Assembly: GCA_964400605.1 (NCBI GenBank)
Contig: CAYNUH010000002.1
Span: 58,866-122,865, forward strand
Source of the DNA: an uncultured Acidobacteriota bacterium
GTDB taxonomy: Bacteria > Acidobacteriota > Polarisedimenticolia > JACPZX01
Length of the DNA: 64,000 nt
Direction of reading: 5' to 3'
In this document: piece after piece, positions 11,652 through 29,592 of the stretch
Layout of the letters: each line of letters opens with the position of its first letter
Position numbering within the stretch: position 1 is the stretch's first letter
Translations under genes and position numbers: made by a program
The notes under the pieces: model-generated
Told to the model about the DNA's origin: nothing
The model's database searches: none
Seen by the model: the letters and a program-made list of their open reading frames with translations, nothing else

Positions 11652-11789
11652 ACCCGCGCCGCCGGAAACGATCGGGCCGCTGCGTGATTTCGCGCGCAAC
11701 AGATCACCCACAACCACCCTCCCGCCCGTCCGTCGCCCTTCGAACCACGTAGGCGGTTGATCCGGAAGGACTTGCCCTGCAGGGGGGCG

Positions 11790-11804
11790 TGGCATCGTGC
11801 TTGC
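11790..11804 (+). promoter_or_regulatory. candidate sigma-54 (-24/-12) promoter TGGCAT-N5-TTGC
   Basis: The sequence gTGGCATcgtgcTTGCcc lies about 105 nt upstream of the CoA-transferase ATG. Spacing between the GG and GC elements is exactly consensus. Confidence 0.5.
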
Positions 11805-11909
11805 CCTTGCTCGACTCGGATGCCGGGATCGGAAGCCCGCCCGGCGCCCGGCCGGTCCGCGCGGCGCGATGCTCTCCAACACGGGCCCCGGCGGGGCGAA
11901 GGAGATCTC

Positions 11910-13229
11910 ATGTCCTGGAAAGACGCCTACCGGAACAAGGTCTTGAGCCCGGACGAGGCCCTACGCTGCGTCCAATCCGGCATGCGCGTGTACATCCACC
12001 CGGGCTGCGCGGAGCCGGAGACGCTGGTGGAGGCCCTGATCCAGCGCGCGCCCGAGGTGCGCAACGTCGAGATCGTCCACCTGCTCACGATGGGACGGGC
12101 GGACTACATCGCCCCCGAGATGGCCGGCCACTTCCGCCACAACGCCATGTTCATCGGCGGCAACGTGCGGGAGGCCGTCAACGACGGCCGCGCCGACTAC
12201 ACGCCGATCTTCCTGAGCGAGATCGAAGGTCTGTTCGAGAGCGGCGAGATGCCCCTCGACGTGGCCCTGATCCAGGTCTCGCCGCCCGACCCGAACGGCT
12301 TCTGCAGCTTCGGCGTCGGCGTGGACACCACGCTGACGGCCGCCAGGACGGCGCGCTACGTGGTCGCCCAGGTGAACGAGCGGATGCCGCGGACGTACGG
12401 CGACAGCTTCATCCACGTGAGCGACATCGACGCGGTGGTGGAGGTCTCGAGGCCCCTGTGCGAGCTTCCGAAGGCCGACATCACGGAGCTGCACCTGGCC
12501 ATCGCCCGCAACGTGGCGAGCCTCATCGAGGACGGCGCGACGCTGCAGCTCGGCATAGGCGGCATTCCCGATGCGGTCCTCCTCTACCTGAAGGACCGCA
12601 AGGACCTCGGCATCCACACCGAGATGCTCTCCGACAACGTGATCCCGCTCATCGAGTCCGGCGTGGTGAACGGCCGCCTCAAAACGCTGCACGCCCGCAA
12701 GGTGATCCTCGGGTTCGTCCTGGGCACCCGGAAGTTGTTCGATTTCGTGAACGACAACCCGATCTTCGAGTTCCGCCCGAGCAGTTACACCAACAACCCC
12801 ATGGTGATCGCGCAGAACGAGCGAATGGTTGCGGTGAACTCGGCGCTCCAGATCGACCTGACCGGTCAGATCTGCTCGGACTCGCTGGGACCGTACTTCT
12901 ACAGCGGCATCGGCGGGCAGGTGGACTTCATCCGCGGCTCGGCGCGCGCCCCCGGGGGCAGGCCCATCATCGCCATCCCCTCCACGGCGCGCGACGACAC
13001 CGTGTCGCGGATCGTGCCGGCGCTCAGCCCCGGGGCCGGGGTGGTCACATCCCGGGGGGCCGTGCGCTACGTGGTGACCGAGCACGGCATCGCCTACCTG
13101 CATGGGCGCACCATCCGCCAGCGCGCCGAAGCGCTGATCCAGGCGGCCCATCCGAAGTTCCGCGAAGAACTCTACGACTACTGCGAGCGCACACGCTGGC
13201 TACAGCGGCCCGTGCTCGCGCCGAGGTGA
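11910..13229 (+). CDS. acetyl-CoA hydrolase/transferase family CoA-transferase (4-hydroxybutyrate- or succinyl-CoA:acetate CoA-transferase-like)
   Basis: An AAGGAG ribosome-binding site precedes ATG 11910. Blocks conserved in the Cat1/Cat2/ScpC family are present. The upstream ORF sequence is leader read-through. Confidence 0.7.
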   Translation: MSWKDAYRNKVLSPDEALRCVQSGMRVYIHPGCAEPETLVEALIQRAPEVRNVEIVHLLTMGRADYIAPEMAGHFRHNAMFIGGNVREAVNDGRADYTPIFLSEIEGLFESGEMPLDVALIQVSPPDPNGFCSFGVGVDTTLTAARTARYVVAQVNERMPRTYGDSFIHVSDIDAVVEVSRPLCELPKADITELHLAIARNVASLIEDGATLQLGIGGIPDAVLLYLKDRKDLGIHTEMLSDNVIPLIESGVVNGRLKTLHARKVILGFVLGTRKLFDFVNDNPIFEFRPSSYTNNPMVIAQNERMVAVNSALQIDLTGQICSDSLGPYFYSGIGGQVDFIRGSARAPGGRPIIAIPSTARDDTVSRIVPALSPGAGVVTSRGAVRYVVTEHGIAYLHGRTIRQRAEALIQAAHPKFREELYDYCERTRWLQRPVLAPR

Positions 13230-13232
13230 CGC

Positions 13233-13523
13233 ATGCCGCCCAAACCGCGCGGTCACGTGACCATCGATTCAGAGGAGTGCAAGGGGTGCGCGCTCTGCGT
13301 GGAGACCTGCCCGCCGGAGTGCCTGGAGCTGGATCCGCATCTCAACCCCTACGGCGTCCATCCCGCGCGGTACACGGGTGCGGGGTGCACCGGGTGCGGC
13401 ATCTGCTTCTACTGCTGCCCGGAGCCCGGCGCCATCACGGTCCACCGGGCGGCGCCGGAGAAGAAGGCCGCGGGCGAGCCTGAGATCGAGAAGGAGGAAG
13501 CGCCCCATGCGGCAGCTCTGTAA
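13233..13523 (+). CDS. korD: 2-oxoacid:ferredoxin oxidoreductase delta subunit (2x[4Fe-4S] ferredoxin)
   Basis: Two motifs, [12 protein letters not shown] and [12 protein letters not shown], in 96 aa. Confidence 0.8.
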
Positions 13524-14562
13524 GGGCAACGTCGCGGTAGTGAAGGGCGCCGTGCTCGCTGGCTGCCGCGCCTTCTACGGGTACCCCATCACGCCGGCCA
13601 GCGAGATCGCCGAGGCCGCCGCGCTGTACATGCCCCAGGTCGGCGGCGTCTTCCTCCAGGCGGAGAGCGAGGTGGCGGCCATCAACATGGTGTACGGTGC
13701 GGCCTCGGCCGGCCTGCGAGCCATGACGGGCTCCTCGGGACCGGGCGTGAGCCTGATGCAGGAGGGGATCTCCTACATGGCCGGAGCCGAGCTGCCCTGC
13801 GTCATCGTGGACGTGGTGCGCGGCGGGCCCGGGCTGGGCAACATCGCGCCCGAGCAGAGCGACTACTTCGCCATGGTGAAGGGAGGGGGCCACGGCAACT
13901 ACCGGAACCTCGTCCTGGCCCCGGCTTCGGTGCAGGAGATGTCGGACCTGACGCGCCTGGCCTTCGATCTGGCGGATCGGTACCGCAACCCCGCTGTCAT
14001 TCTTACCGACGGCTTCATCGGTCAGATGATGGAGCCGCTCGAGCTCGAGGAGGTCGAGCCGTCCGCGCCCGAAAAGCCCTGGAGCGTGAGGGCCACGGCC
14101 GGGACCCGGAAGAACCTGATCACGTCCATCTACCTGGAACCCGACGAGCTCGAAGCGCACGTGCGCCGGCTGGAGGCCAAGTACAAGGTGGCCGCCGAGG
14201 CCGAGCAGCGCCACGAGACCTACAGGACCGACGACGCCGACGTGCTGCTGGTGGGATACGGGATCGTCTCGAGGGTGCTGCGCTCGGCGGTGGAGGAAGC
14301 CCGCGCGCAAGGGCTGCGGGCCGGGCTGTTCCGCCCCATCACGCTGTGGCCGTTCCCTTCGAAGGCCCTGGCACAGGCGGCCGGACGGTGCCGCTCGGTC
14401 CTGGTGGTGGAGATGAGCACGGGCCAGATGGTGGAGGACGTCAGGCTGGCTCTTGAGGGCCGGGTTCCGGTGGATCTGTACGGCCGGGTCGGAGGCAACG
14501 TGCCGCAGATCGAGGAGATCCTGGATCGGCTGGCGGCGGGCGTCGCGGCGCCGGTCCGCTGA
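13507..14562 (+). CDS. korA: 2-oxoglutarate/2-oxoacid:ferredoxin oxidoreductase alpha subunit
   Basis: [29 protein letters not shown] is the KorA/PorA N-terminus. It overlaps korD by 17 nt. Confidence 0.8.
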
Positions 14563-14587
14563 GGATCGCGCCCGCGGAGGGGTCATC

Positions 14588-16027
14588 GTGTCGGACTACG
14601 AGGTCATCCAGTCGAAATCGCCGGTCTTCTACGATCGCTACGAACGCAAGGCGGACCTCCGGCACCAGACGCACTACTGCCCCGGCTGCGGCCACGGTGT
14701 GGCCCACAAGCTGGTGGCGGAGGCCATCGCCGAGATGGGGCTTCAGGACTCAACGATCTTCGTCAGCCCCGTGGGCTGCTCGGTATTCGCCTACTACTAC
14801 TTCGACGTGGGCAACGTGCAGGCCGCCCACGGCCGCGCGCCCGCGGTGGCGACGGGGCTGAGGCGGGCGCTGCCGGGCAGCATCATCATCGCGTACCAGG
14901 GGGACGGCGATCTGGCCGCCATCGGGACTGCGGAGATCCTGCACGCCGCCAACCGCGGCGAGAACATCACCGTCTTCTTCGTCAACAACGCCATCTACGG
15001 CATGACCGGCGGGCAGATGGCTCCCACCACGCTCATCGGGCAGATCAGCACGACGAGCCCCTGGGGCCGCCGGGCGAGCAACGAAGGATACCCGTTGCGC
15101 GTGGCGGAGCTGCTGGCGTCGTTGCAGGCTCCGGTCTACATCGAGCGGGTGGCGCTGAGCGACGGCAAGAACATCATGAAGGCGCGCAAGGCCGTCCACA
15201 AAGCCATCGATCTCCAGCGCCAGGGAGCGGGTTTCTCCTTCGTCGAGATCCTCTCCCCGTGCCCGACCATCTGGAAGATGGACCCGGTCGAGGCCCGCAA
15301 GTGGGTGGCGGAGAAGATGCTGCCGGCCTTCCCCCTGGGCGTGTTCCGCGACCGCAAGGCCGCCATCCCCGGCGACGGCGCGCCTCCCGTGCGCCCCGTG
15401 GCCGAGGTCCTGGGCCTCCGCGATGCGGCGCCGGCCCCTGGCGCCGGAGCACGGGCGCGCGCGGCGGGCCGGGGGAGTCTGAACGTCAAGGTGGCAGGGT
15501 TCGGGGGCCAGGGGATCCTGCTGCTCGGGCAGATCCTGGCCGAGATCGGGATGCGGGAGGGCATGGAGGTGAGCTGGCTGCCTTCCTACGGGCCCGAGAT
15601 GCGCAGCGGCAGCGCCCACTGCCACGTGTGCCTCTCCCGCGGCAGGATAGGATCCCCTCTCATCTCCCGGCCCGACGTCCTGATCGCCATGAACGAGCCG
15701 TCGCTGCGGAAGTTCGGCCCCGAGGTCGCGCCGGGCGGGACCATCCTCTACAACCGGGACGCCCTGCCGGGGGATTTCGACGCGGCGCGGGCCCGCGTGA
15801 TCTGCTTGCCCGCATCCGACATCGCCGACCGGCTCGGCTCGGCGAAGGCGGCGAACGTGGTGATGCTGGGAGCGCTGCTGGATCAGGTGGAATTGCTCGG
15901 GCCGGAGACGGCCAGCGCGGTGCTGGAGTCCACGATCCGCAACGCCGAGATGCTGGAGGTGGACCGGCGCGCCCTGGAGGCCGGAAGGACCTTCGCCGCG
16001 GGATCCGCGTCCGCGGCCGTCGGATAG
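14588..16027 (+). CDS. korB: 2-oxoacid:ferredoxin oxidoreductase fused beta (TPP-binding) plus gamma subunit
   Basis: GTG start 8 nt after GGAGGGG. The N-terminal part has YCPGCGHG and the TPP motif GDGD...NN-YGMTGGQ. The C-terminal approximately 180 aa ([15 protein letters not shown]...) is a gamma-subunit domain. Confidence 0.75.
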
Positions 16028-16064
16028 AGCGGCGCTCCGGCGGGACCGGGAGAAGGAGGGACCC

Positions 16065-18404
16065 ATGCCCATCCGCAAACAGGACGTGCTCGATTACCAC
16101 GCGGGCGCGCGCCCGGGCAAGATCGAGGGCTCGCCCACGAAGCCCTGCCGGACGCAGCGCGATCTGAGCCTCGCCTACACGCCGGGTGTGGCCGAACCCT
16201 GCCTGGAGATCCAGAAGAACCCCCACGATGCTTTCAAGTACACCGCCCGGGGCAACCTGGTGGCGGTGGTGAGCAACGGCACCGCCGTCCTGGGATTGGG
16301 TCACATCGGGGCTCTCGCCGGCAAGCCCGTCATGGAGGGGAAGGCGGTCCTCTTCAAGCGGTTCGCCGACATCGACGTCTTCGACCTGGAGGTGGATTCG
16401 ACCGATCCCGAGGAAGTCATCCTCGTCTGCCGGCTGCTGGAACCCACGTTCGGCGGCATCAACCTGGAGGACATCCGGGCCCCGGAGTGCTTCCTCATCG
16501 AGGAGACGCTCCGGAAGACGATGAAGATCCCCGTCTTCCACGACGATCAGCACGGCACGGCCATCATCTCCGGCGCGGCCCTGATCAACGCGCTGGTTGT
16601 GGCGGGCAAGGAGGTCGGAGCCGTGCGGGTGGTGTTCAACGGAGCCGGCGCCGCGGGCATCGCCTGCGCGGAGCATTACGTGCGTCTCGGCGTCAAGCGC
16701 GAGAACATCGTCCTGTGCGACACCAAGGGGGTCATCTTCAAGGGCCGTGAAGAAGGGATGAACCCGTACAAGGCGCGCTTCGCCCAGGACACCAGCGCCA
16801 GGACGCTGGCGGACGCCCTGCGCGGCGCCGACGTGTTCGTGGGCCTGTCGACGGCCGGCGTCGTGACCCGCGACATGCTGGGCGCCATGGCGGCGCGGCC
16901 CATCGTGTTCGCCATGGCCAACCCCGACCCGGAGATCTCCTACGATGAGGCCCGCGACGCGCGGAACGACGTCATCATGGCGACGGGGCGGTCGGACTAC
17001 CCGAACCAGGTGAACAACGTCCTGGGCTTCCCCTTCATCTTCCGGGGGGCGCTCGACGTGCGCGCCACGGCCATCAACGAGGAGATGAAGCTCGCCGCAA
17101 CGCGCGCGCTCGCGGCGCTGGCCCGGGAGGACGTTCCCGACGCCGTGTGCCGGGCCTACGGCGTCGAGAGGCTGCAGTTCGGCAGGGACTACATTATCCC
17201 TAAGCCGTTCGACCGCCGGGTCCTGGTGTGGGAGGCCGCGGCCGTGGCCCGGGCGGCGATGGAGACGGGGGTGGCGCAGGAACCCGTGGACCTCGAGGAG
17301 TACCGCGAGCAACTCGAGCGGCGGCTGGGCCGGGCCCACGAGGTGATGCGGATGATGATCCACAAGGCCCGGGCGAAGCCGAAGCGGGTTGTCTTCCCGG
17401 AGGGCGAGCACGAGAAGATCCTCCGCGCCTGCCACATCCTCGTGGAGGAGAAGATCGCCAGGCCGGTACTGCTGGGCGACGCGTACGCGATCCACACGAA
17501 GGCATCCCATCTCGGCGTGCCGTTGAGCGGGATGGAGATCGTGGATCCGGCCGAGTGGCCCCACCGGGAGGCGTACATCGAGGAGCTGTACCGGATGCGG
17601 CAGCGCCGCGGGATGACCGCCTCCGAGGCGCGCGAGGTGATCGCGAGCCGCAACGTCTTCGGCTCGATGATGGTGCACATGGGGCACGCCGACGCGCTCG
17701 TTTCGGGCGTGACGCAGCATTACCCGGACACGATCCGCCCGGCGCTCCAGGTGATCAAGGTCCGGGAGGACGTGCACAAGGTGTCGGGCCTCTTCATGCT
17801 GGTGACGCAGCGCGGCGACATCTACTTTCTGGCCGACACCACCGTGAACGTCGATCCGACCGCCGAGGACCTGGCGGAGATCGCCCTGTGCGCGGCCCGC
17901 GCCGCCCGGCGGTTCGACGTCACGCCGCGCGTGGCCCTCCTGTCGTTCTCCAACTTCGGGAGCGCGAAGCATCCCCTCACCGCGAAGGTCCGCCGGGCCG
18001 TGGCGCTGGTGAGGAAGGCCGATCCGGATCTCATGGTGGACGGCGAGATGCAGGCCGACACGGCCGTGGTGCCCGAGATCGTGGAGACGACGTACCCGTT
18101 CTCCGCGCTGCGAGGGGGCGCCAACGTGCTGATCTTCCCCGATCTGCATTCCGGCAACATCGCCTACAAGCTGCTCATGCGCCTGGGCGGCGCGGAGGCC
18201 ATCGGACCGATCCTGATGGGCCTGAGCAAGCCGGTGCACGTCCTCCAGCTGGGAGCGGAGGTCGAGGACATCGTGAACGTCGCCGCCATCGCCGTCGTGG
18301 ACGCGCAGGAGGCGGCGGAGCGCGTCGCGGCCTCCGAGCCGGTGAGTTCCTCATCGAGGACCGTGGAGAATGTCAGCGGCGTCTCCTGCGTCGCAACCGA
18401 TTGA
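16065..18404 (+). CDS. maeB: NADP-dependent malic enzyme (malic domain plus C-terminal phosphotransacetylase-like domain)
   Basis: 779 aa with LAYTPGVA and GxGAAG in the malic domain and a PTA-like C-terminus. Confidence 0.85.
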
Positions 18405-18580
18405 TCCTTCGGCACCTCCACCCCCACCGCCTCGAACCGTCCCACCCGCCGTTGAGGTTCTCATCGCGGGGCGTTGAACCCCTCCGCCGCCTCCTCAAAT
18501 GAGGGAACCCCGCACAATGCATCTCTATGACTATGCTCGAATTGCGAACGCCTCCGTAAAATAGCACACTCCCCCTTCAG

Positions 18581-18596
18581 CGGCACGGCGGTTGCC
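18581..18596 (+). promoter_or_regulatory. candidate sigma-54 promoter GGCACG-N4-TTGC
   Basis: The sequence cGGCACGgcggTTGCc lies in the 300-nt intergenic gap, about 110 nt upstream of the GcvH-like gene. An NtrC-family activator is encoded at the end of the same operon. Confidence 0.55.
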
Positions 18597-18707
18597 TTAC
18601 GTCAGGGTGGAGCGCGGGTCTCCGGAAGGGCGCCGCAAGAGCGCGGACCGCCCGCCGGACGCGCGGGCGACGCGGGCCGCCGGGGATGTCCCGCGAGGAG
18701 GTGTCCC

Positions 18708-19376
18708 ATGACAGTCCTGCTGGTCCTCGCGACCTTCATCGTGTTGCTCACCATCGACTTCGTCCTTAGCCGGAAGAACATGGTGCGGAGCGCCGGGGAG
18801 GCTGCCCGGGCCGCCGCGGTCCTCCGGCCGGGCCGGCCTCTGGTGGGCGGGTTCGCCGTGCCGGAGGGTCTCCGCTACCACCCGGGCCACACCTGGGCGT
18901 TGAGCGAGAGCCCCACTCTCGTGCGCGTCGGGCTGGACGACTTCGCGGCCCGTCTGATCGGGAAACTGGAGAAGGTCACGCTGCCGCGGCGCGGGCAGTG
19001 GATCCGTCAGGGGCAGAAGCTCTGGACGGTTCAGCGCGACGGCCGGCAGGTGGAGATGCTGTCGCCGATCGAGGGGACGGTCGCGAGCGTCAACGAGGCG
19101 CTCGAGCGGGATCCCGACCTGGCGCGCCGCGATCCGTACGGCGAGGGGTGGCTGGTGACCGTGGAGGCTCCCGACCTCCGGACGAACCTGAAGAATCTGC
19201 TGGTCGGCTCGCTGGCGCGATCCTGGATGGAGGATGCCGCGGCGCGGCTGCGGGGGCGGCTGCCGGCGCCGGCGGGGCCCGTGGCCCAGGACGGCGGCGT
19301 GGGCGTCGAGGATCTGGGATCGCAGATCCCCGAGGAGGCGTGGAGCGACCTGGCCCGTGAGTTCTTCCTCGCCTGA
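18708..19376 (+). CDS. membrane-anchored glycine-cleavage H-protein-like (GcvH-like) protein; the lipoyl-lysine may be absent
   Basis: An N-terminal TM helix is followed by a GcvH fold: HTWA (for HEW), LPxxG, PxxGxVxxVNExL and DPYGEGWL. By eye, the position of the lipoyl-Lys (ESVK) aligns to VQRDGR. Confidence 0.6.
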   Translation: MTVLLVLATFIVLLTIDFVLSRKNMVRSAGEAARAAAVLRPGRPLVGGFAVPEGLRYHPGHTWALSESPTLVRVGLDDFAARLIGKLEKVTLPRRGQWIRQGQKLWTVQRDGRQVEMLSPIEGTVASVNEALERDPDLARRDPYGEGWLVTVEAPDLRTNLKNLLVGSLARSWMEDAAARLRGRLPAPAGPVAQDGGVGVEDLGSQIPEEAWSDLAREFFLA

Positions 19377-19667
19377 CGGAGATCACAGGCTGCGAGGCGG
19401 TGGGGGGCGGCGCGTGAGCGTCCGCGGCGGCGCCGCTCCCTCGCGGGATCGTGAAGTCCCGCAACAGTCCGGGAGTGGACCCAGCGCGTGCGTCCATTTC
19501 CTCAACGATCCGTCCCTTTCCCTCTCCAGACCGCTCCTCCCTTCCCGGCCCGGAAGCTAAGCCGTTGCCGCTGAGGCGCTTGTGAACCGGGGCACAAACC
19601 AGGCTCGACGCCGCCGCTGGCAGGGGAATTGCCCTTCAGACGATCGATAGCCCGCGCGGAGGGATCC

Positions 19668-20441
19668 ATGGGCAAGGCCATCCTCTACGACGCGACCCTC
19701 TGCATCGGCTGCAAGGCCTGCGAGCAGGCGTGCGCCGAACGCAACAACCTTCCGTACGACGCCGCCGTGGCCGCCGAGGCCCGTCAGTCGGACCACAAGC
19801 TGACGGTGGTGCTCACCGGCTCCGGCGATCGTTTCATGCGCCGGTTGTGCATGCACTGCGAAGATCCCACGTGTGCCTCCGTGTGCCCGGTGGGGGCGTT
19901 CCGCAAGACCGCGGAGGGCCCCGTGGTGTACGACGAGAGCCGGTGCATGGGCTGCCGCTACTGCATGGTGGCCTGTCCCTTCGGCGTCCCGCGGTACGAG
20001 TGGAGCCAGGTGCTGCCGCGGGTGCGCAAGTGCGATCTCTGCGCCGACAGACTGGCGTCGGGCGGGCAGACGGCGTGCGCGGAGATCTGCCCCACCGGAG
20101 CCACCAAGGTCGGGGAGCGCGACGCTCTCGTCGCCGAGGCGCGCGAGAGGATCCGCAGCGACCCCGGCCGTTACGTGGACCACATCTACGGGCTGACCGA
20201 GGTCGGCGGGACCAGCGTGCTCCTGCTCTCCGGTGTGCCGTTCGAGTCATTCGGCTACCGCGCGGACCTCATCCAGCAGCCGCTCCCGCTTCTGACCTAC
20301 CGGGTGCTTTCGCGCATCCCCGACCTGGTCGTCTTGGGCGGCGTGATGCTGGGTGGGATCTGGTGGATCACGAGCCGCCGCGAGGAGGTCGCCGCCGCCG
20401 AAGGGGACGCGAAGGTTCCCGCGTCAGGCGGGGGGAGGTGA
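19668..20441 (+). CDS. 4x[4Fe-4S] ferredoxin-type subunit (HybA/PsrB/NrfC/DmsB family) with a C-terminal TM anchor; no Tat signal
   Basis: Four Cys clusters (CIGCKACEQAC, CMHCEDPTCASVCP, CMGCRYCMVACP, CDLC...CAEICP) and a C-terminal hydrophobic helix. A GGAGGG ribosome-binding site is present. The protein begins MGKAILYD with no RR leader. Confidence 0.75.
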   Translation: MGKAILYDATLCIGCKACEQACAERNNLPYDAAVAAEARQSDHKLTVVLTGSGDRFMRRLCMHCEDPTCASVCPVGAFRKTAEGPVVYDESRCMGCRYCMVACPFGVPRYEWSQVLPRVRKCDLCADRLASGGQTACAEICPTGATKVGERDALVAEARERIRSDPGRYVDHIYGLTEVGGTSVLLLSGVPFESFGYRADLIQQPLPLLTYRVLSRIPDLVVLGGVMLGGIWWITSRREEVAAAEGDAKVPASGGGR

Positions 20442-20448
20442 CATCGCC

Positions 20449-21618
20449 ATGACCGTTCCTGTGCCGAGGTGGACCTTCTGGAAGGGGGCCTTTGTTCTCA
20501 TCATGCTGGCGGGCCTCTACGCGGCCATCCTGAGGTTTACGAAGGGGCTCGGGGCGTCCACGAACCTGAGCGACGCCTTTCCGTGGGGGCTCTGGGTCGG
20601 GTTCGACGTCCTGTGCGGCGTGATGCTGGCGGCCGGCGGATTCACCCTCACCGCGGCCGTCCACATCTTCAACATCGAGCGACTCAAGCCCATCATCCGC
20701 CCCACCGTGCTGACGGCGTTCCTCGGCTACCTCCTGGTGGTCGTGGCGCTCCTGTTCGACCTCGGCCGCTCCTACCGCATCTGGCACCCGCTGATCATGT
20801 GGAACCCGCGCTCGGTGATGTTCGAGGTGGGCTGGTGCGTGATGCTCTACAGCACGGTCCTGGCCCTCGAGTTCGCGCCGGTGGTGTTCGAACGGCTCCG
20901 GCTGGAGCGCGCATCGCGCATTCTGAGAATGATCTCCATCCCGCTCGTGATCGCGGGGGTGATCCTCTCGACGCTGCATCAGTCCTCGCTGGGAAGCCTC
21001 TATCTCATCGTCCCGCACAAGCTCCATCCGTACTGGTACACGCCGCTGCTGCCGGTGTTCTTCTTTCTCTCGGCCATCGGGATCGGGCTGGCCATGACGA
21101 TCTTCGAGTCGTGCATGAGTAGCAGGTACTTCGGCAAGAGGCTCGAGCTGCCGCTGCTGCGGGAGCTGGGCCGCATCCTCGTGGTCGTGCTGATGGTCTA
21201 CGGCGTGCTCCGGGTGCAGGACCTCCACCACCGGGGGGCGCTGGGGCTGGTGCTCCAGGACGGCTACGAGACCCGGCTCTTCATTCTGGAGGTGGTCCTG
21301 GGTCTGATGCTCCCCATCGCGCTCCTGCTCAATCCGCGCCTGCGCGAGAGCCCCGCCGGGCTCTACATCGCCTCGGTGTTGACCGTACTGGGCTTCATCG
21401 CCAACCGGCTGAACGTGAGCATCACGGGGATGGAGGCCTCGGCCGGCGTGCGGTACATCCCCAAGTGGACGGAGATGGCCGTGACCGCGAGCATCATCGC
21501 GACCGGGTTCGCCGTCTTCGGCATGGCCGTCAAATACCTCCCCATCTTCGTGGCCGAGGGGTGGCGTCCCGCGCCTGCGGCGCCGCTCCCCGCCGGTGCG
21601 CGCCATGCCGCCCCTTGA
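20449..21618 (+). CDS. NrfD/PsrC/HybB-family polytopic membrane quinone-interacting subunit
   Basis: About 10 TM helices with the NrfD-like organisation. A GGGAGGTG ribosome-binding site precedes ATG 20449. Confidence 0.7.
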   Translation: MTVPVPRWTFWKGAFVLIMLAGLYAAILRFTKGLGASTNLSDAFPWGLWVGFDVLCGVMLAAGGFTLTAAVHIFNIERLKPIIRPTVLTAFLGYLLVVVALLFDLGRSYRIWHPLIMWNPRSVMFEVGWCVMLYSTVLALEFAPVVFERLRLERASRILRMISIPLVIAGVILSTLHQSSLGSLYLIVPHKLHPYWYTPLLPVFFFLSAIGIGLAMTIFESCMSSRYFGKRLELPLLRELGRILVVVLMVYGVLRVQDLHHRGALGLVLQDGYETRLFILEVVLGLMLPIALLLNPRLRESPAGLYIASVLTVLGFIANRLNVSITGMEASAGVRYIPKWTEMAVTASIIATGFAVFGMAVKYLPIFVAEGWRPAPAAPLPAGARHAAP

Positions 21619-21652
21619 CGCGGGAGGGAAGGCGCGCGGCCGCGCCTCGGGA

Positions 21653-23281
21653 ATGGGCCGGATGAGCCGCAGCCTGAGCGTGCGGCTGACGGCGTTGCTG
21701 GTGGCCGCCACCGCGGCGATCTTCGCCCTGCTGGGGTACTTCAACATCCATCTGCACCGCCGGCACCTGGAGGCGGCCACGCTGCTCAGCGCCGAGCGGG
21801 TCAGCGACGTCATCAAGCGCAGCACCTCCTATTACATGCTGCGCAACGACCGCGAGGGGCTCTACCACATCATCGACACCGTGGCCGACGAGCCGGGCAT
21901 GGCGCGCATCCGCATCTTCAACCAGGAAGGGCGCATCAGCTTCTCCACCGACCCGGGGGAGGTGGACACCTACGTGGACAAGCGGGGGGAGGCCTGCTAC
22001 GCCTGCCACGCGCGGGCGCAGCCTCTGGCCCACCTGGACCGTCCCGACCGCTTCCGCATCTACCGCCTGCCGGGCGGGGAGAGGGCGCTCGGCATCATCA
22101 ACCCCATCGAGAACCTGCCCTCGTGTTCCTCCGCCGCGTGCCACGCCCACCCGGCCTCCCAGAAGATCCTGGGCGTGCTGGATACCAACCTCTCCCTTTC
22201 CGTGGCCGAGGCCAGCCTCGCCGAGAGCAGCCGCCAGATGCTCGCCCACACCCTCCTCGCCATCGCCGCCATCTCGCTCCTGTCGGGCCTGCTGGTCTGG
22301 AGACTGGTGCACGGCCCCGTGAAGGCGCTCAAGGTGGGCACGGAGCGGCTGACCCGCGGCGATCTGGGCCATCAGATCGAGGTGGGTTCGAGAAGCGACG
22401 AGATCGGAGAGCTGGCTTCCTCCTTCAACACCATGAGCCGGCAGCTCGGCGAGGCGCGGGAGGAATCGACGGCGTGGGCCCGCACCCTGGAGGAACGCGT
22501 CGCGCAGAAGACGAAGGAGCTGAAGCGCGCCCACGAGCACATGGTGCAGGTGGAGAAGATGGCCTCCATCGGCCGCCTGGCTGCCACCGTCGCCCACGAG
22601 ATCAACAACCCGCTCTCCGGGATCCTCACGTACGCCCGCCTGCTGAGGAAGTGGGCCGAGAGCGCACAGTGGGGGGACGGCCGCCGCGAGGAGGCGCTCA
22701 GCTCGCTGCGGCTCATCGAGAGCGAGAGCCGCCGGTGCGGGGAGATCGTCCGGAATCTGCTGATGTTCGCGCGGGCGGCCCCTCTCAATCTGGAGTCCGT
22801 CCCGATCGGGGCGGTCGTGGATCGCTGCGTGAGGCTGGTACGGCACCGGCTGGATCTGGCAGGCATCCAGCTCCATCTCGACATGGCCGGGGAGCTCCCT
22901 CCCGTGCGCTGCGATCCCTCGCAGCTGGAACAGGTGCTGCTGGCGCTGGTCATGAACGCGATCGAGGCGATGCCGCGGGGTGGGAACCTTTCCATCCGCT
23001 GCCGGCCCGTCGAGGAGATGGGAGAGGCGCGGATTGAGGTGCAGGACGACGGTGAGGGGATCCCGCCTGACGTCCTCCCGCAGCTCTTCGAGCCGTTCTT
23101 CACGACGAAGGAGAAGGGGCATGGCGTCGGGCTCGGATTGGCCATCAGCCGCGGCATCGTGGAGCGTCACGGCGGCCGCGTCGAGGTCCGTTCGGACCTC
23201 CAGAAGGGCACGACGGTGACGGTGACCATGCCCGTGGAAGGGGATGCGGCGGCCGCGCCGGACGCGGGCGCCGCCGCGTAG
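21653..23281 (+). CDS. sensor histidine kinase (periplasmic Cys-rich sensor, HAMP, HisKA, HATPase)
   Basis: TM, then a periplasmic domain containing CYACH, then a second TM, HAMP, H-box HEINNPL, and the N, G1 and G2 boxes. Confidence 0.8.
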   Translation: MGRMSRSLSVRLTALLVAATAAIFALLGYFNIHLHRRHLEAATLLSAERVSDVIKRSTSYYMLRNDREGLYHIIDTVADEPGMARIRIFNQEGRISFSTDPGEVDTYVDKRGEACYACHARAQPLAHLDRPDRFRIYRLPGGERALGIINPIENLPSCSSAACHAHPASQKILGVLDTNLSLSVAEASLAESSRQMLAHTLLAIAAISLLSGLLVWRLVHGPVKALKVGTERLTRGDLGHQIEVGSRSDEIGELASSFNTMSRQLGEAREESTAWARTLEERVAQKTKELKRAHEHMVQVEKMASIGRLAATVAHEINNPLSGILTYARLLRKWAESAQWGDGRREEALSSLRLIESESRRCGEIVRNLLMFARAAPLNLESVPIGAVVDRCVRLVRHRLDLAGIQLHLDMAGELPPVRCDPSQLEQVLLALVMNAIEAMPRGGNLSIRCRPVEEMGEARIEVQDDGEGIPPDVLPQLFEPFFTTKEKGHGVGLGLAISRGIVERHGGRVEVRSDLQKGTTVTVTMPVEGDAAAAPDAGAAA

Positions 23282-23296
23282 CGAGGGCGAAGGACC

Positions 23297-24646
23297 GTGA
23301 GCGACAAGGGAAGGATTCTGGTGGTGGACGACGAGCCCATCGTGAGGGACTCGCTCGCGAAGTGGTTTGCCGAGGAAGGGTACGAGACGGGCGCGGCGGA
23401 GAGCGCCCGCGAAGCCCTCAACCGGCTGGCGGAAGGACGCTGGGACCTGGCCCTCGTGGACATCAAAATGCCCGGAACGGACGGCATCGAGCTGCAGCGC
23501 CGGCTGAAGGAGATCGACCCGGATCTCGTCGTGATCATCATGACCGGCTACGCCTCGGTGGAGACGGCCGTGCAGGCGCTCAAGAACGGGGCCTACGACT
23601 ACGTCACGAAGCCCTTCGATCCCGACGACATCTCCCACGCGATCCGCAACGCTCTCTCGCACCGGCGGGCCCGCGCGGAGAATGTGCGGCTGCGGGAGGT
23701 CCTGGCGGAGACGGCGGGAGCGCCGGAGCTCATCGGCCGGAGCGCCGCCTTCCAGCGCGTCGCGGGCGCCATCGAGACCGTCGGCCCCACGGACGCCACC
23801 GTTCTCATCACGGGCGAGAGCGGGACGGGCAAGGAGCTGGTGGCCCGCGCCGTCCACGCCGCGAGCGCGCGCCGCTACAACCCCCTGGTGGTCATCCACT
23901 GCGGCGCTCTCACGGAGACACTCCTCGAGAGCGAGCTGTTCGGCCACGAGAAAGGCGCCTTCACCGGGGCCCAGTACCGCAAGAAGGGGAAGTTCGAGGT
24001 GGCCGAGGGGGGCACGGTGTTCCTGGACGAGATCGGCGACATCAGCCTGAAGACCCAGACGGACCTGCTGCGCGTCCTCCAGGAGAAGGAGATCACGCGC
24101 GTGGGGAGCAACCGGCCCATGCGCGTGGACTTCCGCTGCGTGGCCGCGACCCACAGGAACCTGGAGGCGCTCATCGAGGAGGGCAGGTTCCGGCCGGATC
24201 TCTTCTACAGGCTGAACGTCTTCCGGATGGAGATCCCCCCGTTGCGGGAACGGCGGGACGACATCCCTCTCCTGGCCGATGCCTTCGTCCGTCGCTTCTC
24301 CCTCGCCATGGGAAAGCACATCGCGAGGGTGACGCCGGCGGCCATGAACCTCCTGGTGCAGCATAACTGGCCGGGCAACGTCCGCGAGCTGGAGAACGCC
24401 GTGGAACGAGCGATGGTGGTGGCCTCGGAACCCGAGCTGCGCGAGGGGGACTTCACGCTGACGCTCCGCCCGGCGGAGCCCGCCGGCCGCACGCTCGAGG
24501 AGGTCGAGCGGGTGCACATCCTCAGAGTGCTGGAGGAGTGCGGGGGGAACAAGACGCGGGCCGCGGCGGCGCTGGACATCGATCGGGTCACGCTCCACAA
24601 CAAGCTGAAGAAGTACGGCTGGGTGAAGAAGGCCGTCGCGAGCTGA
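23297..24646 (+). CDS. sigma-54-dependent response regulator (NtrC family: REC plus AAA+ plus Fis HTH)
   Basis: GTG start. The receiver has DD...D...K; GESGTGKE Walker A; GAFTGA sigma-54 interaction motif; C-terminal HTH. Confidence 0.85.
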   Translation: MSDKGRILVVDDEPIVRDSLAKWFAEEGYETGAAESAREALNRLAEGRWDLALVDIKMPGTDGIELQRRLKEIDPDLVVIIMTGYASVETAVQALKNGAYDYVTKPFDPDDISHAIRNALSHRRARAENVRLREVLAETAGAPELIGRSAAFQRVAGAIETVGPTDATVLITGESGTGKELVARAVHAASARRYNPLVVIHCGALTETLLESELFGHEKGAFTGAQYRKKGKFEVAEGGTVFLDEIGDISLKTQTDLLRVLQEKEITRVGSNRPMRVDFRCVAATHRNLEALIEEGRFRPDLFYRLNVFRMEIPPLRERRDDIPLLADAFVRRFSLAMGKHIARVTPAAMNLLVQHNWPGNVRELENAVERAMVVASEPELREGDFTLTLRPAEPAGRTLEEVERVHILRVLEECGGNKTRAAAALDIDRVTLHNKLKKYGWVKKAVAS

Positions 24647-24663
24647 CCGAAGTGATCCACCTC

Positions 24664-25233
24664 ATGGCCATCGGTGGCGTGCCCGGCCGCGCGCTCGAGG
24701 ACCTCCGCCCGGCCCTCGGATCCGTGTTCGGCCGCCCTTGCGAGATCCTGTCCGTCGGACTGGACCCGGCGTTCGCATTCCACCCGGAGCGGCAGCAGTA
24801 CCACGCCACCGAGATCCTGGCCCGGCTCAGCTCGGCCCGGCCGCCCCGGCAGGGACGGCTCCTGGGCGTCGCGCACGTGGACTTGTTCATCCCCATCCTG
24901 ACCTTCGTCTTCGGGGAGGCGCAGCTTGGAGGAGAGTGCGCCGTGATCTCGACGCACCGCCTGCGCCAGGAGTTCTACGGGCTGCCCGCGGACCAGGACC
25001 TGCTCGCGGAGCGCACGTTGAAGGAGGCCGTGCACGAGCTGGGGCACTGCCTGGGACTGGTGCACTGCGAGGACCATCGCTGCGCGATGGCCGCGTCGCA
25101 CGCCGTGGAGTCGATCGACTTGAAGGAGACCGCGCTGTGCGCCGTGTGCCTGGGCCGCTCCGGCGTTGGTGAGGCGGTCAACCGGCCCGGCCGTGAGCGA
25201 TCACTTCGGCGATCACGGTCGGCGGGTGGGTGA
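24664..25233 (+). CDS. archaemetzincin-like zinc metallopeptidase (M54 family)
   Basis: HELGHCLGLVHCEDHRCAM (HExxHxxGxxH plus a Cys-rich zinc site) and C-terminal CAVC. Confidence 0.6.
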   Translation: MAIGGVPGRALEDLRPALGSVFGRPCEILSVGLDPAFAFHPERQQYHATEILARLSSARPPRQGRLLGVAHVDLFIPILTFVFGEAQLGGECAVISTHRLRQEFYGLPADQDLLAERTLKEAVHELGHCLGLVHCEDHRCAMAASHAVESIDLKETALCAVCLGRSGVGEAVNRPGRERSLRRSRSAGG

Positions 25234-27048: not shown

Positions 27049-29592
27049 TTAGATCCTTCCGCCCACTCCCGGCGCCTCGACGGCGGGCGCCGGGGCCACG
27101 CCTCCGATCTCCTCCGGACGGCCGCGACCGTCCGGCCGGCGCACGCCGAGGTGCTCCATGATGCCGCGGGCCGCGCGGCGGCCCGCCCCCATGGCAAGAA
27201 TCACGGTGGCCGAGCCGGTGACGATGTCGCCGCCGGCGTACACGCCGGGGACATTGGTCTCACCGGTCGCTTCGTCCACCACGATGTAGCCCCATCGATT
27301 GGTCTCCAGACCCGGCGTGGTCTGCGAGACGATTGGATTCGCCCGCGTCCCGAGGGCGCAGATGACCGTGTCCACGTCTATGTCGAACTCCGATCCCGGA
27401 ACCGGCACGGGCCGCCGGCGCCCCGACTCGTCGGGGTCGCCCAGCTCCATCCTCACGCAAGTCATCCCGCGCGCCCAGCCGTTCTCGGTGCCCAGGATCC
27501 GGACCGGATTTGTGAGCCACTGGAAGACGATCCCCTCCTCGATGGCATGATGCAGCTCCTCCGCCCGGGCGGGGCACTCGGTGCGGCTGCGCCGGTACAC
27601 CACGCTCACCGATTCGGCGCCCATGCGCAGCGAGACACGGGCCGCGTCCATGGCCGTGTTGCCCGCGCCCACGACGGCGACCCGCCGGCCCATGCCCACG
27701 GGGGTGTCGTAGAGAGGCTGGCGGAACCCCTGCATGAGGTTCACGCGCGTGAGGAATTCGTTGGCCGAAAAGACGCCATTGAGGGATTCGCCCGGGATGT
27801 TCATGAAGCGCGGCGATCCGGCGCCCGTGGCGATGAAGACCGCGCTGAAGTCCATCGCACCCAGCAGGTGTGGGATCGTGAAGATCTTCCCGACGACCCT
27901 ATCCAGCTCGATCGTCACCCCGAGGCGGACGAGGTTCTCCAACTCGATGTCGATGGTGTCGTTGGGAAGGCGGAACTCGGGGATGCCGTACTTGAGGACC
28001 CCGCCGGCCACGTGGAGCGCTTCGTAGATCGTGACCTGCACGCCGGCCTTGGCGAGGTCGCCGGCGCAGGCGAGCCCCGCCGGGCCCGATCCGATGATGG
28101 CGACCTTCTTTGCCGCGGGCGAGGGCGAAGGCGCGACGTCCCAGCCGCGCCCGACGGCGACGTCCGCCACGAACCTCTCGAGCCGGCCGATGGCCACCGG
28201 CTCCAGCTTGGCCCCCACGATGCAGTTCGCCTCGCACTGCGTTTCCTGCGGGCAGACGCGGCCGCAGACGGCGGGCAGGGTGTTCGCGTCCTTGAGGATC
28301 CGGTAGGAGCCCTCGAGATCCCGGCGCGACAGCGCGGCGATGAAGCCGGGGATGTCGATCTCGACGGGGCACCCCGGGACGCACTTCGGCTTCCTGCACT
28401 GGAGACAGCGGTCCGCCTCGGCGACGGCCTGCTCGAGGGTGTATCCCAGGGCCACCTCTTCGAAGTTGTGCGCCCTCGAGAGCGCCGGCTGCTCGGGCAT
28501 GGGGGTCTTCTTCGGTGCCACCGTGCGCAGCGTCTTGACCGGCGCGCGAGCGCCCGCCGTGGGAGGGGGCTCCGGCTCCGGGAGCGGAGGAAGCGAAGAG
28601 GGCAGCACCCGGCAGCGCGAGGGGGCCTGGGCGGGGTTCGACCCGCCGGGACCGAGCGAGGCGAGGCGGGACGCTTCGCGCTCGTAGCGTTCCATCGCCT
28701 CCCGCTCCTCCCGCTCGAAGCGCTTCTGCCGGAGCATGAGCTCGTCGAAGTCCACGCCGTGGCCGTCGAAGTCGGGCCCGTCCACGCACGCGAACTTCAT
28801 GCCGCCTCCGATGGTGACACGGCAGGACCCGCACATCCCCGTCCCGTCCACCATGATGGAGTTGAGCGAAACCAGAGTGCGAATGCCGCGGGGGCGCGTC
28901 AGGTGCGCGCAGGCCTTCATCATGACGAGGGGGCCGATGGCCACCACGAGCCCAACGTCGGGATGCCGATCCAGAACCACGCGCAGGGCGTCGGTGACGA
29001 GTCCCTTCATGCCGAAGGATCCGTCGTCGGTGGTCACCAGGAATTCGTCGCTGAAGGCCTCGAACCGATCCTGCCAGAACATGAGATCGCGGGTGCGGAA
29101 GCCGATGATGGAGAGGGTGGTGTTGCCCGCCTCGCGGAACGCGCGAAGCTGCGGGAAGACGGGCGCCACGCCGAGGCCGCCTCCCACCAGCACGACCTTG
29201 CCACCCTTTGAGATCTCGCTGGCCACGCCGAGCGGGCCGATGAAGTCGAGGATCTCGGCTCCCTCGGGAAGCGCCATCATCTGGTGGGTCGTCTTGCCGA
29301 CCGCCTGGACGACCACGGTGACGGTCCCGCGCTCGCGATCGAAGTCCGCCACCGTGAGTGGTATCCGCTCCCCGGTTTCGTCCACGCGGACCATCAGGAA
29401 GTGGCCCGGCTCGGCCACCCGGGCGACATCGGGCGCCTGCACCTCCCAGAGGAACGTCGCGGGGCCGAACTGCTCACGCCTCACGATCCGGTACACGGCA
29501 TCTCCCGTTTCCGCCGCCGGTGCGTCGTTTGGCGCAGCCGCGGCCGCACCTGCGCCTTCTCTCTCACGAGAGGGCCGCGGAAGTGGCTGCAA
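27049..29592 (-). CDS. fused NfnA-like (PyrK/SudB ferredoxin-NADP reductase-like) plus NfnB-like (GltD/SudA, FAD/NAD(P), 2x[4Fe-4S]) oxidoreductase
   Basis: The N-terminal half has FAD/NAD-binding and a C-terminal [2Fe-2S] motif (CGxGMCGSCRV). The C-terminal half has CLQCRKPKCVPGCP...CGRVCPQETQCEANC, the dinucleotide fold VAIIGSGPAGLACA, and GltD blocks. Confidence 0.75.
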   Translation of the reverse strand: MQPLPRPSREREGAGAAAAAPNDAPAAETGDAVYRIVRREQFGPATFLWEVQAPDVARVAEPGHFLMVRVDETGERIPLTVADFDRERGTVTVVVQAVGKTTHQMMALPEGAEILDFIGPLGVASEISKGGKVVLVGGGLGVAPVFPQLRAFREAGNTTLSIIGFRTRDLMFWQDRFEAFSDEFLVTTDDGSFGMKGLVTDALRVVLDRHPDVGLVVAIGPLVMMKACAHLTRPRGIRTLVSLNSIMVDGTGMCGSCRVTIGGGMKFACVDGPDFDGHGVDFDELMLRQKRFEREEREAMERYEREASRLASLGPGGSNPAQAPSRCRVLPSSLPPLPEPEPPPTAGARAPVKTLRTVAPKKTPMPEQPALSRAHNFEEVALGYTLEQAVAEADRCLQCRKPKCVPGCPVEIDIPGFIAALSRRDLEGSYRILKDANTLPAVCGRVCPQETQCEANCIVGAKLEPVAIGRLERFVADVAVGRGWDVAPSPSPAAKKVAIIGSGPAGLACAGDLAKAGVQVTIYEALHVAGGVLKYGIPEFRLPNDTIDIELENLVRLGVTIELDRVVGKIFTIPHLLGAMDFSAVFIATGAGSPRFMNIPGESLNGVFSANEFLTRVNLMQGFRQPLYDTPVGMGRRVAVVGAGNTAMDAARVSLRMGAESVSVVYRRSRTECPARAEELHHAIEEGIVFQWLTNPVRILGTENGWARGMTCVRMELGDPDESGRRRPVPVPGSEFDIDVDTVICALGTRANPIVSQTTPGLETNRWGYIVVDEATGETNVPGVYAGGDIVTGSATVILAMGAGRRAARGIMEHLGVRRPDGRGRPEEIGGVAPAPAVEAPGVGGRI

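Follow-up and report, generated by a model that had tools for sequence, protein, structure and literature searches.

A membrane-anchored GcvH-like protein family without the lipoyl-lysine, encoded in Acidobacteriota with a predicted sigma-54 promoter and an Fe-S/NrfD gene cluster

The window analysed here is a 64,000-nucleotide stretch of DNA from an uncultured Acidobacteriota bacterium (contig CAYNUH010000002.1, positions 58,866 to 122,865), and its positions 18708 to 19376 encode a protein that resembles GcvH, the H-protein of the glycine cleavage system. We found that this gene opens a same-strand set, contained within positions 18708-25233, that continues with genes for an iron-sulfur (Fe-S) protein, an NrfD-family membrane subunit, a sensor histidine kinase (HK), a sigma-54-dependent response regulator (RR) and an M54 peptidase. 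This gene-cluster context, which the original prediction for this DNA had not seen, is our main finding. Judged from its sequence, the GcvH-like protein is not lipoylatable at the canonical site, and the alignments mark the loss of the lysine as a family-wide trait and not the accident of one sequence. The protein is neither a glycine-cleavage protein nor LbpA. Its gene and domains are laid out as follows.

18708-19376, + strand: GcvH-like protein gene, an open reading frame (ORF) with an ATG start, 222 amino acids plus stop
18695-18701, + strand: ribosome-binding site GAGGAGG ahead of that ATG, read from the sequence
18711-18770, + strand: N-terminal transmembrane (TM) helix, residues 2-21, predicted N-out/C-in (AlphaFold, lysine-plus-arginine (K+R) bias, fusion protein P0200)
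18870-19208, + strand: GCV_H domain (H-protein fold), residues 55-167 (Pfam, phmmer against the PDB, Foldseek)
19035-19043, + strand: hairpin tip R110-D111-G112, with Gly112 at the lipoyl-lysine position (alignments, DSSP turn 111-112, motif-anchored count)
19209-19373, + strand: family-specific C-terminal extension, residues 168-222, with Q194-D195-G196-G197, W212 and EFFL (conserved columns)

The original prediction had aligned the canonical ESVK lipoylation motif over V-Q-R-D-G-R, where there is no lysine, and the strings on which it relied (PIEGTVASVNEAL, DPYGEGWL, VQRDGR and GQKLW) are all present in the window protein. Its placement was upheld by three approaches. With phmmer the ESVK lysine falls on Gly112, the hairpin being ungapped against 1onl, 3hgb, 3ift and 3a8i. 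A MAFFT alignment with the H-proteins of E. coli, the comparison that had been proposed, and of T. thermophilus and pea put Gly112 in the identical lipoyl-lysine column. Finally, in an AlphaFold2 model built from an alignment of 28 relatives, strands 104-110 and 113-118 flank the lipoylation hairpin with a predicted local distance difference test (pLDDT) score of ~82, so that D111-G112 would form the hairpin turn where the lysine would sit. The protein has five lysines (residues 23, 86, 89, 104 and 162), none of them inside the hairpin, and zero cysteines. We also considered K104 of GQKLW, which had been named as a lysine that might belong at the hairpin. In the model it sits at the opposite strand end, far from the turn, and its column is unconserved in 109 diverse relatives (K 32, P 24, R 15, V 9); K104 is ruled out as another lipoylation site on both grounds.

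A motif-anchored count finds Gly at the lipoyl position in 115/115 close relatives, and MAFFT does so in 120/121; the R-D-G tip is typical of these proteins, with R110-D111-G112 nearly invariant among them. Across the wider family the residue at this position varies (G/S/D/A/E); among 109 full-length diverse representatives it is G in 52, S in 18, A in 10, D in 9 and K in only 2. A second clade, which we call clade 2 (Desulfobacterota, Calditrichia, Gemmatimonadota and others), carries Ser at the lipoyl position and, in 100/124 domains, a Lys one residue past it that is missing in the window's clade. Work by Wallis and Perham in 1994 is said to have shown that lipoylating enzymes do not accept a lysine moved by one position. 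The absence of the lipoyl-lysine makes a lipoate swinging-arm role impossible for the family.

The family is large. The nearest public protein is 99% identical and comes from a metagenome, and homologues number >4000, hundreds of them 57-66% identical to the window protein, with the taxon-labelled ones mostly from Terriglobia. A HMMER scan of 1.84 billion representatives returned 302 clusters at 50% identity with E<=1e-30. The ~300 clusters have no conserved lipoyl Lys and extend over Acidobacteriota, Desulfobacterota, Calditrichia and Gemmatimonadota. Family members occur in at least 524 GTDB species, and Desulfocicer vacuolatum is among the carriers of a relative. Pairwise ratios of nonsynonymous to synonymous substitution rates (dN/dS) among orthologues have a median of 0.20, which indicates purifying selection on the gene. 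These sequences are already in the databases under a misleading name, public annotation calling the relatives 'glycine cleavage system protein H'.

That the protein has the H-protein fold is supported by sequence and model alike. Pfam GCV_H matches residues 55-167 (E 6.2e-20, 71.8 bits, cut-off 22.2), phmmer finds PDB GcvH chains at E 3e-17 to 4e-9 with 28-32% identity over ~120 residues, and the top PDB structural matches of the model in Foldseek are GcvH chains such as 1onl, with a target-normalised TM-score (TMt) of 0.76. Fold and Pfam domain are held in common with GcvH of T. thermophilus (1onl) and E. coli (3a7a/3ab9), as are the landmarks HxW, G-[IL]-[TD], P-x-G, N and P-Y-x-x-G-W. However, canonical GcvH is a soluble protein of ~130 residues, whereas the window protein has 222 residues and differs by its Gly in place of the lipoyl-lysine, its membrane helix, its 55-residue tail, its sigma-54 promoter and the lack of a gcvT/gcvP context. 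The tail is missing in canonical GcvH in the MAFFT alignment, and it has invariant or near-invariant columns in close and diverse relatives. Together with the tail (Q-D-G-G...W...F-F-L), the family-specific features H58-x-G60-H61-x-W63, D77-D78-F79 and Q101-G102 make up a signature that the window protein carries and that is kept in 28 close and 109 diverse members. H58, G60, H61, W63, D77 and F79 are each kept in >=90% of the diverse set; H58 and D77 are residues unlike those of canonical GcvH at the same positions.

The N-terminal helix spans residues 2-38 in the AlphaFold2 model (pLDDT ~88). In 329 family proteins the mean number of K+R residues is 0.36 before the helix and 2.86 after it, and 95% of the proteins have more after it. 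One fusion relative, P0200, runs from a signal peptide through four CxxCH motifs and a TM helix to the GcvH-like domain, an order that forces the H-fold into the cytoplasm. The H-fold and tail of the window protein are thus predicted to face the cytoplasm, held by a single N-terminal helix anchor. What had been described as a non-lipoylated, membrane-tethered H-fold protein therefore stands as to fold, tether and missing canonical site, on the combined evidence of sequence, model and family. The roles offered with that description fared less well: a purely structural one is too narrow, and another prosthetic group at the hairpin is disfavoured by a tip without Lys or Cys.

In other relatives the GcvH-like domain is fused to a receiver domain, a tetrahaem cytochrome, Cys-rich modules or an FAD/Fe-S/CCG oxidoreductase. 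Paralogues within the clusters described below begin with a plain helix like that of the window protein, an HmcD-like helix or a Cys-rich module, and whatever the N-terminal module they have no conserved Lys at the lipoyl position. The largest fusion that we noted is P0209 (L086, 3234-7409), a protein of 1391 residues with three GcvH-like domains, a GlcD-like FAD oxidase, a 4Fe-4S domain and two CCG (HdrD/GlpC-like) domains, whose neighbours are a PAS/GAF kinase, an OmpR-type regulator and a UbiA prenyltransferase.

Upstream of the GcvH-like gene we identified a predicted promoter of the sigma-54 type.

18579-18599, + strand: sigma-54 (-24/-12) promoter AGCGGCACGGCGGTTGCCTTA, ~110 nt before the start codon (pattern search; position weight matrix (PWM) score 16.8)

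It has the textbook form of such an element and is one of just two PWM matches >=14 in the window. In 71/81 Terriglobia loci a bare TGG-N9-TGC lies 54-97 nt ahead of the orthologous start, with the consensus TTTGGCATGCCGATTGCCTTA; of the 18 strict sigma-54 matches in clade 2, 10 stand ahead of a GcvH-like gene. Such sites are rare elsewhere: a PWM search of 1.38 Mb on both strands gave 101 matches, and 80 of them fall just upstream of the GcvH-like gene. Neither a sigma-70 promoter nor an intrinsic terminator was found by scan in 18300-19750. Ahead of the Fe-S/NrfD/HK/RR operon there is no conserved sigma-54 site in 14 Terriglobia orthologues. TGGCAGGGGAATTGCC, at 19618-19633 (+), is a weak candidate at most for a sigma-54 promoter of the Fe-S operon, having no conserved counterpart in the orthologues; it overlaps the TTG start that the ORF finder gave to the Fe-S gene and lies 35 nt ahead of the real ATG at 19668.

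Two further observations concern sites of this kind. A palindrome, GTTGC-N5-GCAAC, occurs ~229 nt before the GcvH-like start in 23/81 Terriglobia loci (L006-L084), against a background maximum of 3, and is not recognisable in the window; given its distance of ~150 nt from the sigma-54 promoter, on the upstream side, it is a candidate enhancer at which the activator might bind. The second strong sigma-54-like site of the window, CGTGGCATCGTGCTTGCCCTT at 11788-11808 (+) with a PWM score of 15.6, stands ahead of genes at 11922-18404 for a CoA-transferase, a small ferredoxin, the alpha and beta subunits of a 2-oxoacid:ferredoxin oxidoreductase (OFOR) and an NADP-malic enzyme/PTA fusion. No site of this type was seen at that position in Terriglobia relatives.

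Downstream of the GcvH-like gene the window contains the following features.

19668-20441, + strand: HmcB/HybA-like 4Fe-4S protein with a C-terminal TM helix and no twin-arginine (Tat) signal (Pfam Fer4_11, NCBIfam)
20449-21618, + strand: HmcC/HybB-like NrfD-family membrane subunit with 10 TM helices (Pfam NrfD, NCBIfam)
21596-23281, + strand: HAMP sensor histidine kinase, start codon uncertain (Pfam HAMP/HisKA/HATPase_c)
21995-22009 and 22124-22144, + strand: haem-c motifs CYACH and CSSAACH in the periplasmic loop of the kinase (motif read)
23297-24646, + strand: NtrC-family sigma-54-dependent response regulator (Pfam Response_reg, Sigma54_activat and HTH_8)
24652-25233, + strand: archaemetzincin (M54) zinc metallopeptidase with an intact HELGHCLGLVH (Pfam Peptidase_M54, NCBIfam archmetzin)

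We take ATG 19668 as the true start of the Fe-S protein, 14 orthologues beginning with MSKALLYDAT. Its best NCBIfam matches are HmcB (267 bits, cut-off 420) and HybA (205 bits), and those of the NrfD protein are HmcC (328 bits, cut-off 550) and HybB (284 bits), all below cut-off. The kinase has TM segments at residues 31-49 and 216-234. In its sensor domain the CxxCH motif is present in 52/52 and the Cx4CH motif in 49/52 homologues, drawn from Terriglobia genomes and from distant clade-2 metagenome contigs, and by these motifs the kinase is probably a dihaem-c redox sensor. The best NCBIfam matches of the regulator are AtoC and ZraR, below cut-off. The M54 frame is open from 24538, with GTG 24652 or ATG 24664 as the likely start, and its product scores 160.6 bits against archmetzin (cut-off 145). 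There is no gcvT or gcvP near the GcvH-like gene, whose neighbours are a malic enzyme (MaeB) gene and the Fe-S/NrfD/HK/RR/M54 cluster; no hdr-like cluster or LplA-like ligase occurs among the ORFs examined from 7.8 to 29.6 kb of the window; and no cytochrome or HdrD-like gene belongs to the window cluster. PADLOC defence models gave zero matches to the GcvH-like protein.

The matching gene set recurs around relatives in Desulfobacterota and on other contigs of unrelated lineages. Among 32 metagenome loci of >=8 kb, retrieved by a clade-2 profile, the Fe-S protein is encoded in 29, the NrfD protein in 30, the kinase in 24, the sigma-54 regulator in 23 and the M54 peptidase in 20, and two or more GcvH-like paralogues are found in 30. 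The typical clade-2 order is GcvHL-FeS-NrfD-GcvHL-GcvHL-HK-RR-M54, where GcvHL denotes a GcvH-like gene. The Terriglobia gene is usually monocistronic and variable in location: it adjoins the Fe-S/NrfD/HK/RR block in ~15/81 loci, in varying orientation, and CoA-transferase/ferredoxin/OFOR genes are near it in ~27/84 loci (all those fetched). The window holds both of these neighbourhoods. No immediate neighbour is strictly conserved across the 81 Terriglobia loci, the commonest being an ORF of ~223 residues upstream (35/81), which in L002-L004 is a 221-residue DUF1326 protein.

Small single-helix proteins of 71-88 residues that end in MADGG sit between the clade-2 GcvH-like genes (L088, 6673-6939 and 7937-8152; the 'sm' genes of L092-L107). 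They match no known family, and their motif echoes the QDGG of the GcvH-like tail. In one subgroup of loci (L088, 1991-4685, -; L093, L096, L097, L099-L101 and L112) the cluster is flanked by divergent genes for a CbcB-like dihaem cytochrome b and a CbcA-like multihaem cytochrome c; the CbcB-like gene is present in 6/32 and the CbcA-like gene in 5/32 clade-2 loci.

From these data we propose a role that may well prove right and could nearly as easily prove wrong: the GcvH-like protein would be a cytoplasm-facing, inducible, non-lipoylated accessory or adaptor subunit, docking or regulatory, of a redox-controlled Fe-S/NrfD quinone module. The kinase with its two periplasmic haem-c motifs would signal to the NtrC-type regulator, which would activate the sigma-54 promoter just upstream of the GcvH-like gene. 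The product would then join the adjacent HmcB/HybA-like Fe-S protein and the HmcC/HybB-like NrfD quinone-interacting subunit, its helix packing in the membrane in the manner of HmcD, a small subunit of Hmc, with the H-fold providing a protein-docking or adaptor surface. A docking module is suggested by the combination of a constant H-fold and tail with swappable N-terminal anchors, by the several paralogues per cluster and by sigma-54 control. That the subunit would be regulated, with docking or signalling as its part in a redox module, is suggested by the conserved promoter, the conserved cluster, the multiple paralogues and the receiver and cytochrome fusions.

Several observations weigh against this proposal. 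In about half of the 81 Terriglobia loci the Fe-S/NrfD cluster and the OFOR genes are both missing within 9 kb of the gene, so that there the linkage is carried by the promoter alone. The enrichment seen in the PWM search is partly circular, its training set having been these very sites (the count of bare TGG-N9-TGC is not circular). Confidence in the AlphaFold2 model is moderate, with a mean pLDDT of 71 and residues 32-62 below 50. The helix of the window protein has no match to the HmcD models (NF045712, PF28260) at E<=0.01. The geometry of any complex is not evident either, as a Tat-less Fe-S subunit stands beside an NrfD protein of the usual orientation. Finally, we found no publications on the GcvH-like family or its gene cluster in the literature searched.

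The sidedness of the Fe-S subunit bears on how such a complex might be built. Neither the Fe-S protein of the window nor any of 14 Terriglobia orthologues (L008-L083) carries a Tat signal, whereas the clade-2 orthologues in L088, L090 and L091 carry clear RRxFLK Tat signals. An inverted NrfD topology as an explanation for the Tat-less subunit was ruled out, the NrfD protein being collinear with E. coli HybB and retaining its orientation and K+R bias. Either the Terriglobia Fe-S protein leaves the cytoplasm by a different export route, or it faces the cytoplasm and so shares a side of the membrane with the GcvH-like domain. The missing signal and the frequent ferredoxin/OFOR neighbourhood allow a doubtful further step. 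In it the H-fold would have been taken over, without lipoate, as the signal-coupled docking subunit of a widespread and hitherto undescribed membrane redox module made up of the dihaem-c sensor kinase, the sigma-54 activator, the Fe-S/NrfD quinone module and the M54 peptidase; in Terriglobia this module could link ferredoxin to quinone from the cytoplasmic side, and the GcvH-like protein would act as the inducible adaptor.

Among the alternatives the one that holds up best, although we consider it clearly less probable than the accessory-subunit proposal, is that the GcvH-like protein is a feedback modulator of the two-component system, binding the kinase or the regulator as ZraP acts on ZraS/ZraR and PspA on PspF. 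It would then not belong to the Fe-S/NrfD complex as a stoichiometric subunit, and to that extent the two ideas differ; otherwise they overlap. The GcvH-like gene is the sole gene in Terriglobia loci with a strong conserved sigma-54 promoter, the Fe-S/NrfD/HK/RR operon there being without one, and it is often unlinked from the cluster. Relatives fuse the domain straight to a receiver domain, and the AtoC and ZraR matches of the regulator fit the same idea. On the other side, the clade-2 paralogues lie between Fe-S/NrfD and kinase genes in one co-directional block, an arrangement that suits subunits equally. The likeness to ZraSR-ZraP and PspF-PspA is one of regulatory logic alone, an NtrC-type activator beside a sigma-54-driven small accessory gene, as ZraP and PspA have no sequence relationship to the window protein.

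It is unlikely that the protein is instead a substrate or partner of the M54 peptidase, with regulated cleavage in the low-complexity linker (residues 22-50) or in the QDGG tail freeing or inactivating the H-fold. In its favour, an M54 gene whose HExxHxxGxxH motif is intact belongs to the window cluster, and 20/32 clade-2 loci have the M54 gene as well; the linker is predicted to be disordered (pLDDT below 50 at residues 32-62), and the ADGG motif recurs in small TM proteins nearby. Co-occurrence is, however, the whole basis of this idea, and NCBIfam also has a non-proteolytic archaemetzincin-like subfamily, whose model the peptidase matches below cut-off.

Slightly less probable still is another covalent group at or near the hairpin, or a non-covalent cofactor or metal bound, for example, through H58-x-G60-H61 and D77-D78. 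Such a group could account for the near-invariance of R110-D111-G112 in close relatives, for the conservation of H58, G60, H61, W63, D77 and F79 in the diverse members and for the clade-2 Lys one past the lipoyl position. Yet the hairpin offers no Lys or Cys and the window protein no Cys anywhere, the tip residues vary family-wide, the clade-2 Lys is missing in the window's clade, and the His-rich segment is poorly modelled. An ordinary GcvH of glycine cleavage or a lipoyl relay, lipoylated on another lysine, is effectively excluded despite the Pfam match and the public names, as the protein has no lysine at the turn, scores below the NCBIfam GcvH cut-offs (74.7 against 115.85 bits for TIGR00527, 77.6 against 117 for NF002270), has a membrane anchor and the 55-residue tail, lacks gcvT/gcvP nearby, and has its nearest other lysine, K104, in an unconserved column outside the hairpin.

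Comparison with described systems sets the proposed accessory subunit apart from each of them. LbpA of the sulfur-oxidising Hdr-like system resembles it as a GcvH-like protein recruited to a redox complex outside glycine cleavage. LbpA proteins have a strict lipoyl-lysine in 95/95 cases together with two conserved cysteines, and their genes stand beside hdr-like and lplA-like genes (PMC6067878). Unlike LbpA, the window protein lacks a Lys in the hairpin and is free of Cys, and its gene adjoins the Fe-S/NrfD pair. GcvH-L of Staphylococcus and Streptococcus (PDB 5a35; Foldseek match at E 4e-5) is likewise a GcvH paralogue outside glycine cleavage, a soluble lipoic acid carrier and partner of a sirtuin/macrodomain pair (PMC5049849, PMC12440151); the window protein is, in contrast, membrane-bound and not lipoylatable at the canonical site.

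The two genes downstream of the GcvH-like gene find their best NCBIfam matches in Hmc of Desulfovibrio and in HybA/HybB of E. coli hydrogenase-2. Unlike those systems, they score below the equivalog cut-offs, are accompanied by no HmcA/E/F or hydrogenase genes and include an Fe-S protein without a Tat signal. HmcD itself has no H-fold domain. The N-terminal helix of clade 2 gives a weak match to Pfam DVU_0533 and matches NCBIfam HmcD at E 9e-5 (22.3 bits against a cut-off of 34); DVU_0533 is presumably HmcD, with which the NCBIfam match of the same helix is consistent.

A regulatory parallel comes from Geobacter, in which BccR turns on the quinone-oxidoreductase operon cbcBA at low redox potential; that operon has a sigma-54 promoter followed first by two hypothetical genes (10.1101/2021.04.15.440034). 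The CbcBA-like cytochrome pair beside the cluster in several clade-2 loci recalls this locus. The link to Geobacter is unproven: GSU0597 and GSU3489, considered here for the BccR-controlled cbcBA operon, are called hypothetical in the papers, and a Cys-rich paralogue search gave no Geobacter-labelled match.

These results have consequences for annotation and for physiology. On this evidence, thousands of database proteins from Acidobacteriota, Desulfobacterota and other phyla that bear the names 'glycine cleavage system protein H' or 'lipoate-binding protein' are unable to bind lipoate at the canonical site, and metabolic reconstructions should leave them out when glycine-cleavage or lipoate genes are tallied. 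The family is the marker of a conserved cluster, so far unstudied, in which an NrfD-type quinone module would be coupled to sigma-54 control and to a periplasmic sensor based on haem. The cluster is present in abundant soil Acidobacteriota, whose anaerobic or low-redox physiology is poorly understood. If the proposed role is true, it would offer a clear example of the lipoyl/H-protein fold used as a protein-interaction module and not as a cofactor carrier. The gene is amenable to test, with one sharply defined promoter and defined candidate partners.

We also note an ORF of 847 residues farther along the window (27049-29592, -) with a DHODB-type Fe-S domain, Fer4_20 and Pyr_redox_2. It resembles a fused NfnAB, or glutamate-synthase-small-subunit-like, NAD(P)H:ferredoxin oxidoreductase and would be another ferredoxin-linked enzyme near the cluster.

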